Shown here piece after piece: positions 55,454 through 64,000 of a stretch of 64,000 nt of DNA (its first letter is position 1; every line of letters starts with the position of its first letter). The notes under the pieces are model-generated. The model was given only the letters and a program-made list of their open reading frames with translations. It did not search any database and was not told the origin of the DNA. This DNA is from Leptolyngbyaceae cyanobacterium clean351 (GTDB lineage Bacteria; Cyanobacteriota; Cyanobacteriia; DAIDHW01): positions 905,530 to 969,529 of the forward strand of contig DAIDHW010000001.1 of NCBI GenBank assembly GCA_027451865.1, given 5' to 3'. Both the position numbers and the translations under genes were made by a program.

Positions 55454-56539
55454 CTAGGGAGATGGGCTGGTGACAGTCACTGGCCAGTTGGGTTGCGGGG
55501 GAAAACTCTGGTCGTGGCGAAACATAGGCAGGGCAGTCAAAATGCCTAACCGCAGACCTAGGCCTAGGGCCGCACCCAGGAAACCAGCCCAAAAAGAGAT
55601 GTACAGCAAGCTCCGGGGAGCTGGATGGGGCCCTGAGGAGGAGTGACTAGGGGACATGGGCTTCGCTTTACCTTGGTTTTTACTGGGTTTGGCGGGTCGG
55701 GTCTCCGGGCGCACCAGGGGCGGGGGAGCCATCTCGGGCAACAGCTCCAACCAAGCCTGCACAGTTTGGGGCCGAGCATCCGCCTCGATTTCCAGGCCTC
55801 GCAGGATTGCCACTTCAAGGGCGGGCGGAACCTCTGGAGACCATTGCTTGAGACTGGGCAAGCGCACTCGGTTACGGAGGGGAGCCGCCACTGGGGAATT
55901 ACCACCCAGGAGAAAGTAAAGGGTGGCAGCTAAGGAGTAAACGTCGGTGGCAGGGCTGAGACGACTCTGGGGTAAGTATTGCTCTAGGGGAGCATAACCA
56001 TCGGTGAAGATGCCCGTCTGGACCTGCTCGGCGTGGATAGACTGCTCACGGGCGATGCCAAAGTCAATTAGTACTACTGAGTTAGTGCCTTGACGGCGAA
56101 TTATATTTTGGGGTTTAACATCTCGGTGTAGCAGCCCCTGACCATGGACGGCCACCAAAGCCCGGCCAATCTGACGGATGTACTGGAGAGCTAGAGAAGG
56201 AGCTAGGGGCTGCTTAGGACTGACGACCTCGTCTAGGGTTTGGCCAGGAACATAGTCCATGACCATAAATAATCCCCCATCCTCTTCAAAAAAGTCTAGG
56301 ACCCTGACAATGTGAGGATGTTGGCAGCGGGCCAGGTGGCGAGCTTCCCGTAAAAAGCGCTGGCGGAGGTTTTTCAGGTCCAGACCAGTGGCAAGGTTAG
56401 GCTGGAGAGTCTTGATCACCACAGGCTGGTCCAAGTACATGTGGGAGGCCTGGTAGGTGACCCCAAATCCTCCTTGCCCTAAGACCTTTTGCAGGATGTA
56501 CTTGTTACCCTGAAGTATTTGCCCGGCGGCTAGCTGCAT
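55454..56539 (-). CDS. Hanks-type Ser/Thr protein kinase with C-terminal membrane anchor
   Basis: GQGGFG loop, VVIK, HRDVKPQN, DFG, APE; Pro-rich linker and C-terminal hydrophobic helix. Confidence 0.85.
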   Translation of the reverse strand: MQLAAGQILQGNKYILQKVLGQGGFGVTYQASHMYLDQPVVIKTLQPNLATGLDLKNLRQRFLREARHLARCQHPHIVRVLDFFEEDGGLFMVMDYVPGQTLDEVVSPKQPLAPSLALQYIRQIGRALVAVHGQGLLHRDVKPQNIIRRQGTNSVVLIDFGIAREQSIHAEQVQTGIFTDGYAPLEQYLPQSRLSPATDVYSLAATLYFLLGGNSPVAAPLRNRVRLPSLKQWSPEVPPALEVAILRGLEIEADARPQTVQAWLELLPEMAPPPLVRPETRPAKPSKNQGKAKPMSPSHSSSGPHPAPRSLLYISFWAGFLGAALGLGLRLGILTALPMFRHDQSFPPQPNWPVTVTSPSP

Positions 56540-56583
56540 AGGTTCAGCTTAACTTTGCAGCCATATTAGCAGAAATTTCTTAC

Positions 56584-57924
56584 CTAAGGTTTTGGGGGAG
56601 GAAAGTGGCTACGCACAAAGGAAATGGCCTCAGTACGCCCTTGTACCTCGCCGTCCAAGGTTGCCCCGAGGAGCACCTCGAGAATTTCCCTGAATTGAGG
56701 GCCAGGCTGGTAGCCCAATTCTAGTAGGTCCTGGCCAGTTAAGGGGGGAGGAGTCTGAGACCAGATGGTTAGGTAGTTCCAGACCCACCGCCGGACTGGT
56801 CCCGGGTTTCTGAGGGTCACTAGGTGCAAGACCGACCGACTCCACCCCTTGAACAGAACCACCGCCTGACTAGGAGTCAGCCAAGACCCCAGGTGATTGA
56901 CCAGTTGGGCTTCGGCGGCTGCTAAATCCTCCAGGTGACGGAGGCTTTCCTGGGGTAAGTGGAGAGCTAGGGCAGCCTCAGCCCGGGCGGTGGTGGCCAG
57001 CTGGGCCAGGATAACCTCCAGGCGACCCGGCCAAGGGGGTAAGGCACAACGGTTGGCTAACCTCAGTTGTCGCTGCAGGCTAGTACTCCAAATCAGGTCA
57101 GGATGGATACAAGCCAAGGCCCCCAACTGGGCGAGCTGATTGAGGGCGGCGAGCCACTGGCGATTGGTGGTCATGGTCAGCAGGCACTCTAGTTCCATCC
57201 CCAGGCGGCTGCCTAGACCCGGGGGTCGTGACCCGGGCCCGGCTCGGTGAAGGAGCTGGCGGTAAAACTGGCTGGCCTGCCGCATTAGGGATTGATCGGT
57301 AACAGTAATAGCAAAGCCCAAGCGGCAGCTAAACCTCACCCCGCGATAGATTCGGGTGGGGTCCTCAATGAAGCTGCCCGGGTGGAGGGCGCGAATCACA
57401 TGGTTATGCAGGTCCTCCAACCCGCCATGGAGGTCAATCAATTCCCCAGGGTGGGGCGAGGTAAGGCAGATTGCCAAGGCATTGATCGTAAAGTCGCGCC
57501 GGTACAGGTCTAGGGCTAGGGTACTCGGCTCGACCTGGGGATTGGCAGCTGGGTAGGGATAGGACTCCCGGCGGGCAGTAGTTAGATCGAGGGCTAAGGG
57601 AGTCGGCTGATGCCAAGCCAGGGTAGCAGTCTGAAATTCCCGGTACACCTGCAACCGAGAGGTCGGGTCTTGCTGATGGAGAGCCTGGGCCAAGGCAATG
57701 GCGGGAGGCAAGCCCTCTAAGGGGGGGCCCTCAACAGTTAGATCCAAGTCCTGTTTGAGGTCTATTCCCAGTAACAGGTCCCGTACCGCCCCCCCGACTA
57801 GGTACACCTGCCATCCCCGAGACTCAGCTAAGGAGGCAACCTGCCTCAGCAGTCCCTGAGCCGAGGGAGACAGGGCCTGGCCAAGCTGCAGCAAGAGGTT
57901 TTGCTTCAAGGTAACCCGGCCCAT
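56584..57924 (-). CDS. tRNA nucleotidyltransferase (CCA-adding enzyme) / poly(A) polymerase family
   Basis: Head-domain motif LVGGAVRDLLLG...DLDL. Confidence 0.75.
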   Translation of the reverse strand: MGRVTLKQNLLLQLGQALSPSAQGLLRQVASLAESRGWQVYLVGGAVRDLLLGIDLKQDLDLTVEGPPLEGLPPAIALAQALHQQDPTSRLQVYREFQTATLAWHQPTPLALDLTTARRESYPYPAANPQVEPSTLALDLYRRDFTINALAICLTSPHPGELIDLHGGLEDLHNHVIRALHPGSFIEDPTRIYRGVRFSCRLGFAITVTDQSLMRQASQFYRQLLHRAGPGSRPPGLGSRLGMELECLLTMTTNRQWLAALNQLAQLGALACIHPDLIWSTSLQRQLRLANRCALPPWPGRLEVILAQLATTARAEAALALHLPQESLRHLEDLAAAEAQLVNHLGSWLTPSQAVVLFKGWSRSVLHLVTLRNPGPVRRWVWNYLTIWSQTPPPLTGQDLLELGYQPGPQFREILEVLLGATLDGEVQGRTEAISFVRSHFPPPKP

Positions 57925-58021
57925 TTTTCGCTAATTTCCCCAAGAGATTCTGATAATCTAGGCTTAGGACTGGTCGCAAGCCCGGGGTCTAGTCCATTGA
58001 AAACTACCTGCAGCAAAACAA

Positions 58022-58213
58022 ATGTTAACAATTGCCTTTCAAGTTTGCCTAACTGCCCTAGTGTTATTGTCCTTCCTAATGGTGATCGGCGTACCGGTAG
58101 CCTACGCCACTCCCCAAAACTGGAACCAATCTAAGAGCTTAATGCTCCTGGGGTCCCTTCTTTGGGTGGTTTTAGTAGTTTTGGTGGGTGTACTGAACTT
58201 TTCTGTGGTCTGA
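58022..58213 (+). CDS. psbZ: photosystem II reaction centre protein Z
   Basis: 62-63-aa two-helix protein with the conserved PsbZ core [13 protein letters not shown] ... VGVLNF. Confidence 0.85.
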
Positions 58214-58225
58214 GTATTAGGCTGC

Positions 58226-58774
58226 ATGACAGTTTTTGAAGGTAATTTCAGTAATACTGAGCATCTCCACCTGGCAGTTGTCATTGGTAGATTCAATGAC
58301 CTAATCACCAATAAGCTTTTGAGCGGTTGCCAAGACTGTCTTAAGCGCCATGGAGTAGACCCTGACCCCCAGGGTGACCAGGTAGATTATGTCTGGGTAC
58401 CGGGGAGCTTCGAAATCCCCCTAGTGGCTCGTCAGCTAGCCCTTACAGGCAACTATGATGCGGTCATTTGTCTGGGAGCTGTAATCCGTGGTCAAACCCC
58501 CCACTTTGACTACGTGGCTGCAGAAGTAGCCAAGGGGGTGGCAGCAGCTAGTTTTCAGACCGGCGTACCGGTAGTGTTCGGGGTCTTGACCACAGACACT
58601 TTACAGCAAGCCCTAGAGCGGGCGGGCATCAAGGCTAATCACGGTTGGGACTACGCCATGAATGCCCTGGAGATGGCCAGTTTAATGAGACAGTTGCGGG
58701 GCACCCTCAGATCTCCCCAGGCGGCCCTAGTCCCGGGGGCCGCCACTCCCCTACTAGACCCCTCCGCCGTTTGA
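58226..58774 (+). CDS. ribH: 6,7-dimethyl-8-ribityllumazine synthase
   Basis: Lumazine synthase motifs ([30 protein letters not shown]). Confidence 0.9.
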
Positions 58775-58786
58775 GCTCATAGGGGC

Positions 58787-60316
58787 TTAGAGGCGTCGGG
58801 AAAGCAGGCGGTAGATCAACAGAAAAAGCGCCATGGTCACTAGGGACCCGAGGGCGAGAATCACGCCGCCTGTAGCAATAACCATGCTGGCGTCAACTAA
58901 GCCGTGGAGGGCAAATGCCGCCCTCACCTGGGGGATAAAAGCCACTACTGTAGTGCTCACTACTGCCACTACAACTAGGTCGAATCGCTCGATCAGCTGG
59001 CGGGCTTGAACACCGATTAAAACTACTAACAGGAGGAGCCAAGCCCCCACCGCCCCTAGGGTTGGTCCAAGCAGGCTCACCAGTAAAATCAGAAGCACTC
59101 CCCCCTCAAAACCAGTAAACAAGGCCGAATTCAGTAACCTCAGGGCTGGGAGGTGGCGGGGGGGTTGACGGACTGGGGCCGGCCGGGCTGGGGTGGGAGT
59201 GCCCAAGGCTTGGGTAGGCGGCACAGGACTGGCAACGGCGGGGGGCTTACCGCCGGGTAGGACTTGGGTGGGGGGAACGGCAGGGACCGGTTTGGCGGCT
59301 GGTCCGGCCGGCGGAGCTGGCAGGGTGGGGGGGAGAGGCTGGTTGGGGCCTGGCCGGGTTGAGGCTGGAGATTCCCGCAGTAGCTTCAAAATGACCTCGG
59401 CGGAGGAGGGGCGGTTTCGGGGAGACTGGGAAAGCATCAGGTCTAGAAGTTTCGCCAGGCGCTGGCTGACCTGGGGGGCGTAGGGGCGCCAATTCCAGCA
59501 GTTGCGATTCCCGTCGTAGAGTTGCTCTGGCTGCTGCCCGGTCAAGAGCATCACACAGGTGGCCGCTAGGGCGTACAGGTCCGTGGTGGGAGATACCGCC
59601 GCCCCTAGCATCTGTTCGGGGGGGGCAAACCCCGGGGAGTAGATCTCCGTTGACCGGCCTGAGCTGGTGCCCTGGGTAATCTTTTTTACGGCCCCAAAGT
59701 CCAGCAAAAAAAAATGGCCATCCTGCCGGCGCATAATGTTAGAGGGCTTGACATCCCGATGAATGGTGCCCTGACTGTGGACGAACTGGAGAATCTCCAA
59801 GACGCTTTCTAGGACCTCTAGAACTTGGGCCTCAGAAAACTTCCCCTGGGCCGCCAACTCCTGCTCTAGGGTTAGGCCATCAATAAACTCTTGCACCAAA
59901 TAGAAATACTCTTCCGTTACCCCGGGTCGGGAGCTAGGGACCGTGAGGGGAAAGAAGGCCAAAAGTTCCGGAATGTGACGGTTTTGTTTGCCTAGCTGGG
60001 CAAGCACCTCTCCCTCCCGCTCAAACAAGTCCTTAGCCTTGGCTAGTTGTTCTGGTCCAAGGCTCACCGCCGGCTGGAACTGTTTTACCACACAGGTGCT
60101 CAGATTTGGCATTCGTCGGTCTAGGGCCAAGAAAGCCGCCCCAAACCCCCCCCGCCCCAGGAGTTTTTGGGGCAGGTAGCGGCCATCGAGAATCAGGACC
60201 ATGCCGCAACTAGTGCAGAATTTCTGGGTTACCCCCCGCAGGGCAGCCGGCTCATCTAAGTCTGGGCAGGAGTTTTGGGGATGCTGGCAACCGGGACGGG
60301 TACAGTGGATAAGCAT
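58787..60316 (-). CDS. Hanks-type Ser/Thr protein kinase with N-terminal zinc ribbon and C-terminal membrane region
   Basis: N-terminal Cys cluster (CTRPGC...CTSCG), GRGGFG, VVKQ, HRDVKPSN, DFG, APE; Pro-rich linker, C-terminal hydrophobic helices. Confidence 0.85.
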   Translation of the reverse strand: MLIHCTRPGCQHPQNSCPDLDEPAALRGVTQKFCTSCGMVLILDGRYLPQKLLGRGGFGAAFLALDRRMPNLSTCVVKQFQPAVSLGPEQLAKAKDLFEREGEVLAQLGKQNRHIPELLAFFPLTVPSSRPGVTEEYFYLVQEFIDGLTLEQELAAQGKFSEAQVLEVLESVLEILQFVHSQGTIHRDVKPSNIMRRQDGHFFLLDFGAVKKITQGTSSGRSTEIYSPGFAPPEQMLGAAVSPTTDLYALAATCVMLLTGQQPEQLYDGNRNCWNWRPYAPQVSQRLAKLLDLMLSQSPRNRPSSAEVILKLLRESPASTRPGPNQPLPPTLPAPPAGPAAKPVPAVPPTQVLPGGKPPAVASPVPPTQALGTPTPARPAPVRQPPRHLPALRLLNSALFTGFEGGVLLILLVSLLGPTLGAVGAWLLLLVVLIGVQARQLIERFDLVVVAVVSTTVVAFIPQVRAAFALHGLVDASMVIATGGVILALGSLVTMALFLLIYRLLSRRL

Positions 60317-60326
60317 GACAGAAGCC

Positions 60327-60480
60327 TAGTCTAGGTCTACAGACTTGGGAGCACTCTTGAGGGGCAGAGAGGGGATGGACTCAAAGGCGGGGGAAACCAG
60401 AGGTAATATTTCTCGGGCGAAAGCCTCAGCAGCACGATAACGACCGGCACTACAAATATAAATCACTAGGAGGATGCGCT
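60327..60480 (-). pseudogene. 3' fragment of a LysR-type regulator gene (duplication remnant)
   Basis: Minus-strand translation gives ...[34 protein letters not shown], near-identical to the C-terminus of the LysR gene at 63189; no upstream coding body. Confidence 0.4.
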
Positions 60481-60629
60481 TGATTCTGAGCTCAGAATCA
60501 AATCTAATAGAGTTACAGGCAAAGCCCTATTATCGCCAATAGAGAAAGTAGCACAAGAGCATCACTCATCCTATAAAGCCCGCCAGCAGGATCACCAGGC
60601 TCAGGAGAAAACCCGTCCGCGCGACCCAC

Positions 60630-61620
60630 CTCCTGTTGGGCCGGGCAACTCTCAAGTTATAGGGACTCAACTCCCTCCTTCGAGTGTGGGCGCGTGCCAA
60701 GTTGTTTTGTGTCTTTGCCCAATCTGTTGGGTAGGCATCGTGAGTGAAGACTTGCAGGACCGATTCATAGAGTTTTATTGCCCGTTCTAGATTCTCGGCC
60801 CGAGCGCCCCGAGTCCTTTCAGGGATTCAACTCCCTCCTTCGAGTGTAGGCGCGTGCCAAGTTGTTTTGTGTCTTTGCCCAATCTGTTGGGTAGACATCG
60901 TGAGTGAAGACTTGCAAGGCCGATTCATAGAGTTTTATTGCCCGTTCTAGATTCTCGGCCCGAGCGCCCCGAGTCCTTTCAAAGTAAGCATTTGCTCAGT
61001 GGTTTTGTGTTTTTGCCCAATCTGTTGGGAAGGCATCGCGAGTGAAGACTTGCAACGGCAATTGATGGAGTCGGACCGCCTGTTCATGGTTCTCGGCCTG
61101 ATCGCCCCGGATCCGGTTATAGTAAGCCATTGCTAAATAATTTTGGGTCTTGGCCCAGTCTGTTGGGAAGGCATCACTAGTTCTCACTTGCAAGGCCGAC
61201 TTATAGAGTTGGATTGCCTGCTCCAGATTCTCAGCCCGATCACCCAGGAGCTGATTAAAGTAGGCAAGTGCCAAGCTGTTTTGGGTCCTTGCCCACTCTT
61301 CCGGGAAGGCATCACGAGTAAAGACTTGCAGGGCCAATTTAGAAGCCTCAATTGCCTGCTCCAGATTCTCAGCCCGGTCACCCCGGAGCCGATAACAGTA
61401 GACATTGGCCAGGCCATATTGTGTTCTTGCCCACTCTTCCGGCAAGGCATCGCGAGTAAAGACTTGCAGGGCCAATTCATAGGCCTCAACCGCCTGCTCC
61501 AGATTCTCAGCCCGCTCGCCCTGGATCCGGTTAAAGTAGGCAAATCCCAAGTTATTTTGGGTTTTTGCCCACTCTTCCGGCAAGGCAACACGGTTTATAT
61601 TTCGCAGCGCCGATTTATAG
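60630..61620. repeat. tandem repeat array, about 120-160 bp period, encoding TPR-like 40-aa units
   Basis: Copies at 60661-60820 and 60821-60980 differ at about 5 of 160 positions; further, progressively divergent units continue to about 61620. Confidence 0.6.
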
Positions 61621-62551
61621 GTTTAGATCGCCCATTCCCACTTCTCTACCTGGTTGCTCCCGATTTGGGTAGGTGGTTTTTGCAGGGCAGAATCCCCCCC
61701 CAGGGCCTGGAGCACCTCCTGGGCCCGTTGGTAGCGCTGCTCTGTAGCGGCCATCAGCAGGCGGTCAAGGACTTGCCCGAAGGAAGGAGAAACAGGGATA
61801 GGGAGGAAATCTCGCCACACCCACTTACCCTTAAGGGAGGAGTACAGGTCAAAGGGCTGCACTCCCGTGAGCAGGTGGATGCAGGTGACCCCCAGGACGT
61901 AGAGGTCGCTGGCGTAGACGGGCTTACCCCGCAGTTGCTCCGGGGCCGCGTAGTCGGCGGTGCCAATAACGGTACCGGTTTTAGCCAGCTGGTGGGGGTC
62001 GACCTGACAGAAGGCGCCAAAATCCACCAGCATGTAGGTGTGACTGCCGGCGCGCCGCATGATGTTGTCTGGTTTAATGTCCCGATGAATCACCTGGTGG
62101 TCGTGGACAAATGCCAACACCGGCAGGATGTTTTCTAGCAGTTGCCGGGTCTGGTCCGCGGACCAGGGCCCCTGACTGGCGAGGGCCTCACTCAAGTTCT
62201 GGCCATCAACAAACTCCTGGACTAGGTACAGGTGCTGGTCTTGGTAAAAGTAGGACAGCAGGGCAGGGATCTGGGGGTGAGCTCCGAGGGAAGCTAGTTG
62301 CTGAGCCTCCTGCTCAAATAGTTCAGCTGCCTTTTGCCGGTTGCCACTCTGGGGTAGGACTTGCTTGATGACACAGCGCTGCTGGTGGGGATGGTCCTGG
62401 TCTACGGCCAAGACCGGCCGAAGCCCCTCAACCAGAGGGGCTTGAGGGCCCGGTAGCGCTCCTGCAGGAGCAGTTTGGCGCCGCAGTGGGGGCAGAAGTT
62501 GGCAGTCCCGCCCAACTGGGGTCTAGGACAGGCGGGGTTTAAACAGTACAT
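60996..62551 (-). pseudogene. disrupted Ser/Thr kinase-TPR-repeat gene
   Basis: Zinc-ribbon N-terminus (MYCLNPACP...CPHCG from 62551) runs into a stop; kinase domain (HRDIKPDN, DFG, APE) continues in another frame from about 62411; in-frame TAA at 61623-61625 separates it from the TPR repeats. Confidence 0.5.
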
Positions 62552-63039
62552 CCCCACGGGATAAAGATACTAAGGGTTTACTTAAACATAATCTTAGAGC
62601 AGAATTTTTGCGGCCCAGCATACAATACAGGTATTTTATAATAGATAGTTTTAGTTTACTAAAAAATTACAACCTAGTGGAGAGTCTCAAGCTGATAATA
62701 GGGGGACATGAAAGAATTCAAAAGGTGAAAGAAAAGACTGGGGACACTCGTGGTCAGGAAATCTGTTCTGGTTATTTAACGGCTTGTCCGGACGACTCAG
62801 CTGTCAAGTTATTTTGGGTTGTTGCCCAAGCAGACCGACAGGAAGATTCCCATGACCAATCGAAGCCCTAAGGGGAATACCACGCTAACCCCGGCTGTCT
62901 CTATGATGTAGACTGAGTCACCGCCGTTCAAATGGCTAGCATCATTTGGCATCACATATAATTTTTGTAACTTTGAGTTGCCAGAATGATCGAGAATAAC
63001 GGAAACCACCACGGTGGTCACCATGGCTGGGATTATTTA

Positions 63040-63188
63040 GATGCAAGTGTCCTCAACCAGGATCGCGCCGCAGCTGGTACAGAGCTTTTGGGCCATCCCC
63101 GCAGGGTAGCCGGGTCATCTAGGTCCGGGCAGGAGTTTTGGGGATGCTGGCAACCGGGACGGGTGCAGTTAATAAGCACGACGGAAGC
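63040..63188 (-). pseudogene. 5' fragment of a zinc-ribbon Ser/Thr kinase gene (duplication remnant)
   Basis: Minus-strand translation VLINCTRPGCQHPQNSCPDLDDPATLRG... matches the N-terminus of the kinase at 58787-60316, then frameshifts and terminates. Confidence 0.4.
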
Positions 63189-64000
63189 CTAGTCTAGGTC
63201 TACCGACTTGGGAGCACTCTTAAGTGGCGGGGAGGGGATGGACTCAAAGGTGGGGGAGAACAGCGGTAGTATTTCCCGGGCGAAAGCCTCAGCCGCCTTG
63301 GAACGATAACGATTGGCATTATAAATCACGGAGAGGATGCGCTTGACGGCAATATCCTCAATCCTAGCCCGGTGTAATATGCCACTATCGAGCTCCTTTT
63401 CAATCGCCGACACAGAAACAAAAGCAGCGCCTAGCCCAGCCTGGACAGCATTTTTAATCGCTTCAATTGAATTTAACTCCATTTCTATTTGCAGGCGACG
63501 GCCATCAATCCCACAGGTGGTCAAGGCCTGGTCGATCACCTTGCGGATCGTGGACTGAGCATCTAGGGCAATGAATTGCAACCGGTATAAGTCTTCCTTC
63601 AGGATGCACTCGGTTTGGGCCAAGGGGTGGGTTACCGGCAAAATTAATGCTAATTCGTCCTCGGCATAGGGAATAATTTCTATAGAGTCCTGGAGTTCTG
63701 TAGGTACTTCCCCCCCAATGACAGCAAGGTCGATCTGCCCATTGGCGACACTCCAGGAGGTCCGCCGGGTCGAGTGGACGTGCAGTTGCACCGCCACCTC
63801 TGGGTAACGTTGACGGAAAGCGCCAATCATCCTAGGCAACAGGTAGGTTCCCGTGGTCTGACTGGCACCAACAATCAGGGTCCCCCCCTGGAGATTTTGC
63901 AGGTCTTCGATCGCCCGACAGGTTTCCGCGCACAGGGTGAGGATTTTGTCTCCGTAACTAAGTAGTAGGTGGCCTGCCTCTGTCAGTTGTGCCCGTCGGC
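63189..64000 (-). CDS. LysR-family transcriptional regulator (5' end beyond window)
   Basis: Substrate-binding domain with [15 protein letters not shown] hinge motif; frame stays open upstream of 63839 through the window end (…[11 protein letters not shown]). Confidence 0.75.

Follow-up and report, generated by a model that had tools for sequence, protein, structure and literature searches.

In a stretch of 64,000 nucleotides from the Leptolyngbyaceae cyanobacterium clean351 (contig DAIDHW010000001.1, positions 905,530 to 969,529; hereafter, the window), the gene for a LysR-family regulator and the gene for a serine/threonine (Ser/Thr) kinase with an N-terminal 4-Cys prefix are separated by unrelated DNA, and the junction joining the 3' end of the first to the 5' end of the second is present twice. 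Read along the minus strand, the order is intact LysR gene, 9 bp, kinase stub, an insert of 2,571 bp, LysR remnant, 9 bp and intact kinase gene. The parts of the two genes and the two copies of their junction are the following:

63189..64000, minus strand: intact LysR-family regulator gene, whose 3' 269 codons lie inside the window; the full protein of 326 aa is P0241 (100% match) and has NCBIfam LysR matches
63055..63346, minus strand: right junction copy, with the last 52 codons of the functional LysR gene, the 9-bp spacer and kinase codons 1-42 (dead)
63055..63179, minus strand: kinase 5' stub, with a GTG start instead of ATG, a 1-nt deletion after codon 28 and homology lost after codon 42
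60326..60483, minus strand: LysR 3' remnant of 52 codons and a stop (tblastn 72.7% over 55 aa)
60191..60483, minus strand: left junction copy, in which the LysR part is the dead 3' remnant and the kinase part (codons 1-42) is functional, with the 9-bp spacer between them
58787..60316, minus strand: intact Ser/Thr kinase gene of 509 aa, encoding an N-terminal 4-Cys prefix, a kinase domain and a hydrophobic C-terminal region (100% match to P0001)

The duplicated junction

Gapped blastn aligned 60191-60483 with 63055-63346 over 299 columns, with 246 identities (82%) and 13 gap columns, a similarity far beyond short motifs (E = 1e-76 over 293 bp). The two copies lie on the same strand and keep the same internal order, the 293-bp repeat holding the last 52 LysR codons, the 9-bp spacer and 42 kinase codons. 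They differ at 53 positions, comprising 40 substitutions and the 13 gap positions, and have a perfect run of 38 nt in common (60264-60301). A repeat search of the window recovered the core of the repeat at 60234-60433 and 63097-63296 (200 nt, 90% identity, offset 2863), with short extensions at offsets 2869 and 2863 that imply two 6-nt indels. The earlier note had placed the repeat at 60230-60480 and 63040-63350 with about 85% identity, and both searches found its coordinates and identity to be essentially right.

We then compared positions 60100-63400 with the whole window by default blastn. The two junction copies matched each other at 85.8% over 240 nt (E = 7e-69), no third copy was found in the 64 kb, and the only other off-diagonal signals were the TPR array of the insert and one 24-nt TPR fragment. 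Nor did translated searches of the window bring up additional LysR or kinase fragments. The folding z-scores of the two copies, +1.3 and +1.1, indicated no unusual RNA structure; being unremarkable, they leave the conservation of the repeat without an explanation at the RNA level. A search against Rfam gave no match in 56000-64000 at E values up to 1.

At the right copy, the LysR stop codon lies at 63189-63191. The protein is 76-85% identical to LysR proteins of many cyanobacteria, which carry the generic database name 'LysR family', and its similarity to the structures of CmpR and NdhR is remote (E about 1e-15), so that it is clearly neither of the two. It is probably an RbcR/PacR/Ycf30-type regulator, based on its very high conservation across cyanobacteria and on the N-terminal IPFTLDQLRILKAIA signature, which we take to be characteristic of this group; its orthologues would then presumably be Sll0998 and All3953. 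PacR and RbcR are the same protein, All3953 (PMC12052932). A literature search found no paper describing a link between rbcR/pacR and a neighbouring kinase.

The kinase stub that follows this LysR gene matches the intact kinase at 24 of 28 amino acids over codons 1-28. Past the deletion, 14 codons (QKLCTSCGAILV) are still recognisable in the shifted frame before homology ends, and tblastn gave 85.7% over residues 1-28 and 58.8% over residues 28-44. We rejected another kinase paralogue as the source of the distal part of the stub, as it keeps the kinase-specific QK(F/L)CTSCG signature. The consensus residues F33, M39, G45, R46 and Y47 are kept in the left copy and lost in the stub. Conversely, the left copy contains only the end of a LysR gene, in which a motif conserved among the orthologues examined now reads ICSAGRYR--AAEAF, through two in-frame 6-nt indels and substitutions; this remnant keeps the lineage-specific tail of the protein, while the right copy keeps the conserved motif. 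Open reading frames (ORFs), translations and tblastn thus bear out the description of the right copy as an intact LysR gene next to a frameshifted kinase 5' stub.

The intact kinase scored 40.3 bits against the 4-Cys prefix kinase profile NF045510 (CxxxxC...CxxC; cut-off 24). A run of nine A at 59706-59714 (nine T on the coding strand) lies within its gene, where it encodes HFFLLD immediately ahead of the DFG motif; a homopolymer of this kind, in a gene otherwise rich in GC, is prone to slippage.

The DNA between the copies

The insert occupies 60484-63054, exactly between the repeat copies, and comprises the following features:

62558..63054, no strand assigned: AT-rich island (GC 42.5% versus 56.5% for the window), upstream of the kinase::TPR pseudogene
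60661..62557, minus strand: chimeric 4-Cys kinase::TPR pseudogene (4Cys_prefix_kin NF045510, kinase domain, TPR_10)
60661..60980, minus strand: tandem duplication of 160 bp at the 3' end of the pseudogene (155/160 identical; not a multiple of 3)
60484..60660, no strand assigned: spacer of 177 bp between the TPR array and the LysR remnant, with a 44-aa ORF without a Pfam match

These features agree with the earlier claim that the two junction copies bracket a repeat array, a kinase-TPR pseudogene and an AT-rich island, the bracketed DNA amounting to 2,571 bp.

The gene in the insert is damaged by a frameshift near 62408-62420, which destroys the glycine loop, and by in-frame stops at 61623-61625 and 60996-60998, making two stops and one frameshift in 1.56 kb. 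Its N-terminus scored 36.2 bits against NF045510. The kinase half (61623-62557; the N-terminal 290 residues) is 80-83% identical in amino acids to P0125, a 635-aa 4-Cys kinase-WD40 protein that is encoded outside the window, apparently on the same contig, and that matches this half only. After 'QEVLQALG', the similarity shifts to TPR proteins at 56-60% identity (e.g. P0122). Judged from its sequence, the inserted gene is a domain-shuffled kinase/TPR chimera of cellular origin that is now dead. Its status as a pseudogene, proposed in the earlier note, therefore stands by virtue of the stops and the frameshift, and its description is refined to a chimera with a P0125-like kinase half.

As its two units are 97% identical, the 160-bp duplication must be much younger than the junction repeat, which indicates that the region kept rearranging. 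In the AT-rich island, the ORFs have no Pfam match and no Rfam match was found. At 62805-62828, it carries what remains of a TPR unit, an isolated 24 nt that are 96% identical to 61548-61571 and suggest that a fragment of a TPR gene was present there earlier.

A perfect 18-nt palindrome (GATTCTGAGCTCAGAATC) at 60482-60499 sits at the very point where the insert meets the LysR remnant. It has no second copy or half-site family in the 64-kb window, in which 0.01 chance matches would be expected; it may represent what is left of a hairpin or fold-back, the stem of a terminator or an operator. It also resembles the kinase sequence immediately beyond the repeat, but over 7 nt (TGATTCT), too short a stretch to support any interpretation. 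ORF analysis and domain scans found no transposase, integrase or recombinase ORF or remnant within 60484-63054, a Pfam scan detected no mobile-element domains in the small ORFs of the insert, stub and remnant, and the repeat search identified no terminal inverted repeats at the insert ends.

An ancestral gene pair and its separation

To establish the ancestral arrangement, we compared the best 80 of hundreds of cyanobacterial relatives of the kinase, taking one genome per species; all are full-length, at 44-52% identity. In 69 of the 80 loci, the kinase orthologue is directly preceded, on the same strand, by a LysR orthologue (73-85% identity), and in one further locus the position of the LysR gene is cut off by the end of the contig. 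None of the syntenic loci has a gene between the two. The gaps from LysR stop to kinase start range from 5 to 484 bp (median 158), and several Leptolyngbya-like relatives have 5-12 bp, matching the 9 bp kept in both copies here. Given this adjacency, the LysR-kinase pair is ancestral and its 2.9-kb separation in this strain is derived, which supports the proposal of the earlier note that a block was inserted or rearranged between the members of an ancestral pair. The same note asked which junction copy is the ancestral one, and the answer is neither: the LysR gene is functional only in the right copy and the kinase only in the left, the other halves being dead.

The pair itself emerges from this comparison as a widespread same-strand association of a LysR regulator with a 4-Cys-prefix membrane Ser/Thr kinase, its members often 5-12 bp apart. 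The nearest full-length homologue of the kinase among the proteins searched, its own entry aside, is 51-52% identical (at most about 62% over partial alignments), and the best of the 80 loci reaches 52%; the source organism appears to belong to an isolated cyanobacterial lineage. Downstream of the kinase, two plus-strand genes, psbZ (58022-58213) and ribH (58226-58774; lumazine synthase), are 12 bp from each other and converge on the kinase 3' end, a context absent from the fetched flanks of all 80 related loci.

Both LysR copies share a 22-residue tail that is absent from the 69 orthologues. Likewise, both kinase copies share CQHPQNSCPDLD (start xLIxCTRPGCQHPQNSCPDLD, with the CQHPQNSC motif), which these orthologues also lack. 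The two copies must therefore descend from the junction of their own lineage, not from a distant homologue or a kinase paralogue.

We regard it as highly probable that the locus is an insertion scar with a duplicated junction between the members of an ancestrally adjacent pair. It is a rearrangement scar and not a working device, and ordinary beyond that. As to how it formed, we infer a duplicative insertion in situ and in one step, to which we give about an even chance; we favour a single event because the insert lies exactly between the copies, so that no coincidence is needed. In the ancestor, the LysR stop would have lain 9 bp ahead of the start of the 4-Cys membrane kinase, the two genes being neighbours as in most cyanobacteria. 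The 2,571 bp of unrelated DNA, consisting of the AT-rich leader and the chimeric kinase::TPR gene, would have entered the kinase gene in its 5' part, behind codon 42, and the same event would have copied about 293 bp of the junction. Replication template switching or the fill-in of a long staggered break could produce such a duplicative insertion, leaving the insert flanked by copies of its target. No other kind of outcome would have left a complete LysR gene on one side and, on the other, a complete kinase gene with 160 bp of native upstream sequence. The kinase stub, the LysR tail and the inserted gene would have been decaying since. As both genes were left whole, the arrangement could persist, presumably under selection.

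The dead halves are damaged as expected from such a history, since the stub has a frameshift and an ATG-to-GTG start and the remnant has lost the conserved LysR motif. We scored the divergence of the copies by the Nei-Gojobori method, separately for an interior of 63 codons and for edges of 12-16 codons next to each joint, a split chosen after the data had been seen and leaving small samples. Synonymous divergence is uniform (proportion of synonymous differences, pS, 0.29 in the interior versus 0.34 at the edges; p = 0.77), which indicates that the whole repeat is of one age. Gene conversion, a conceivable reason for the closer match of the copies in their central part, was rejected, as that part shows no reduction in synonymous divergence. 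The edges have a non-synonymous to synonymous ratio of about 0.5, the value to be expected if one copy is dead and the other live. Where an outgroup permits polarisation, most non-synonymous changes fall on the dead copy (F33L, M39A and I42V in the kinase; F-to-V, S-to-L, N-to-S and N-to-G in LysR).

Several observations weigh against simple decay in place. The proportion of non-synonymous differences (pN) is 0.165 at the edges versus 0.050 in the interior, a 3.3-fold excess (p = 0.011), and all three indels lie within about 45 nt of the insert joints, neither of which uniform decay predicts. The interior shows 14 synonymous and 7 non-synonymous differences (rate ratio near 0.17), a bias with P = 0.016 without transition bias and 0.05 with kappa = 4 under neutral decay in situ. 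The ratio of non-synonymous to synonymous rates (dN/dS) amounts to 0.10 in the tail of LysR and to 0.22 in codons 1-28 of the kinase. At kinase E22/D and A25/T, the stub has the ancestral residue and the live gene the derived one. Finally, pS is near 0.3, yet the inserted gene has fewer lesions than expected had it been dead since the event; either it stayed functional for a while after its arrival, or the event is more recent than the divergence of the repeat. Taken at face value, the sequences hint that the copies may have diverged while both were parts of working genes, in an imported allele or a long-lived second pair. The combination of damage clustered at the joints, uniform synonymous divergence and exclusively transitions in codons 29-42 fits neither simple decay nor simple allelic import.

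Recombination between two versions of the LysR-kinase pair that had diverged with their function retained is accordingly the alternative that we take most seriously, and we hold it to be possible, if somewhat short of probable. By one route, an allele from a relative about 10% diverged in DNA would have entered by natural transformation and been joined through a Campbell-type single crossover or homology-facilitated illegitimate recombination. By another, the whole pair would have been duplicated long ago and both copies would have stayed functional, until a recent replacement put the insert where the remainder of kinase copy 1 and the 5' portion of LysR copy 2 had been. The interior indeed looks as if both copies had been under purifying selection (Sd 14, Nd 7). 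In the kinase part, the 12 substitutions of codons 29-42 are transitions without exception, and codons 31-42 show 5 synonymous changes and conservative replacements (F/L, V/I, I/V). The ancestral residues retained in the stub where the live kinase is derived point the same way, and the modest decay of pseudogene and remnant fits a recent event superimposed on older allelic divergence. On the other hand, the in-situ model tolerates the 20 synonymous and 17 non-synonymous differences of the whole repeat (P = 0.06-0.22), and the interior/edge split is post hoc. Damage clustered at the joints would need mutagenic joint formation as an extra assumption, and the donor must already have carried the insert beside its junction, or two separate events took place. 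A second LysR-kinase pair was found neither within 10 kb at any of the 69 syntenic loci nor in the window, and the databases searched hold no close relative as a possible donor. A more specific proposal, that the left unit (LysR remnant and intact kinase) is a xenologous allele which repaired a kinase destroyed by the insertion, seems doubtful to us; if true, the locus would record a natural gene rescue by transformation, and the duplicated junction would consist of the old 5' stub and a donor LysR tail.

Direct repeats around foreign-looking DNA, including an AT-rich segment, also recall the remnant of a mobile or integrative element, with the repeat as its target-site duplication or attL/attR pair, and integrative elements are known to reconstitute the gene that they enter. 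We consider this very improbable, as the 2,571 bp contain no trace of the required enzymes and do not end in inverted repeats, the duplication, at 293 bp, far exceeds the 2-14 bp left by transposons, and the cargo is a kinase::TPR gene of cellular type to which a chromosomal paralogue is related. That the similarity is due to chance, to a short shared motif or to the assembly can practically be dismissed. Several kinases in the window do share the 4-Cys prefix, but the prefix of the paralogous kinase at 62471-62496 matches over only 26 nt at 73%, whereas LysR tail, spacer and kinase start are matched here in the same order and spacing at the E value given above. A collapsed repeat in the assembly cannot yield diverged copies, and as these differ by 10-18%, such an artefact is excluded.

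Consequences and comparison with known systems

Whichever way it arose, the locus is a record at base-pair level of how a conserved cyanobacterial pair survived a 2.6-kb insertion, both genes having stayed whole because their junction was duplicated. A scan with promoter and terminator consensus sequences found nothing convincing upstream of the kinase, with fewer sites than in shuffled sequence. With the kinase now 2.9 kb from the LysR gene, its expression would have to use read-through or signals in the remnant or insert, so that the strain offers a natural experiment on the need of the pair for co-transcription. Given the perfect run of 38 nt, it is conceivable that the insert could be looped out by homologous recombination.

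Among known systems, genomic islands flanked by attL and attR resemble this locus in that the 3' end of a gene is duplicated and the target gene stays intact. Here, however, an integrase is lacking, the repeat extends into the 5' end of the following gene as well, and the cargo is a single cellular pseudogene. Transposons likewise leave direct repeats around their insertions. Their target duplications measure 2-14 bp, in contrast to 293 bp here, and the locus has neither a transposase nor terminal inverted repeats.

Campbell-type integration and homology-facilitated illegitimate recombination during natural transformation (PMC3240628) come closer, as both place heterologous DNA between two direct homologous copies and would account for synonymous-biased divergence, as from allelic donor DNA. 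They differ in that no donor lineage, circular intermediate or anchor boundary is identifiable here, and classical homology-facilitated illegitimate recombination usually deletes recipient DNA instead of duplicating it.

Template switching of the fork stalling and template switching or microhomology-mediated break-induced replication (FoSTeS/MMBIR) type, and the fill-in of staggered breaks, depart from the locus in that the copies here are 10-18% diverged, with their original joints blurred, and the non-synonymous decay of the interior is below what this model predicts. In common with the locus, they give a direct target duplication of hundreds of base pairs around the insert, involve no mobile-element machinery and leave extra mutations near both joints.

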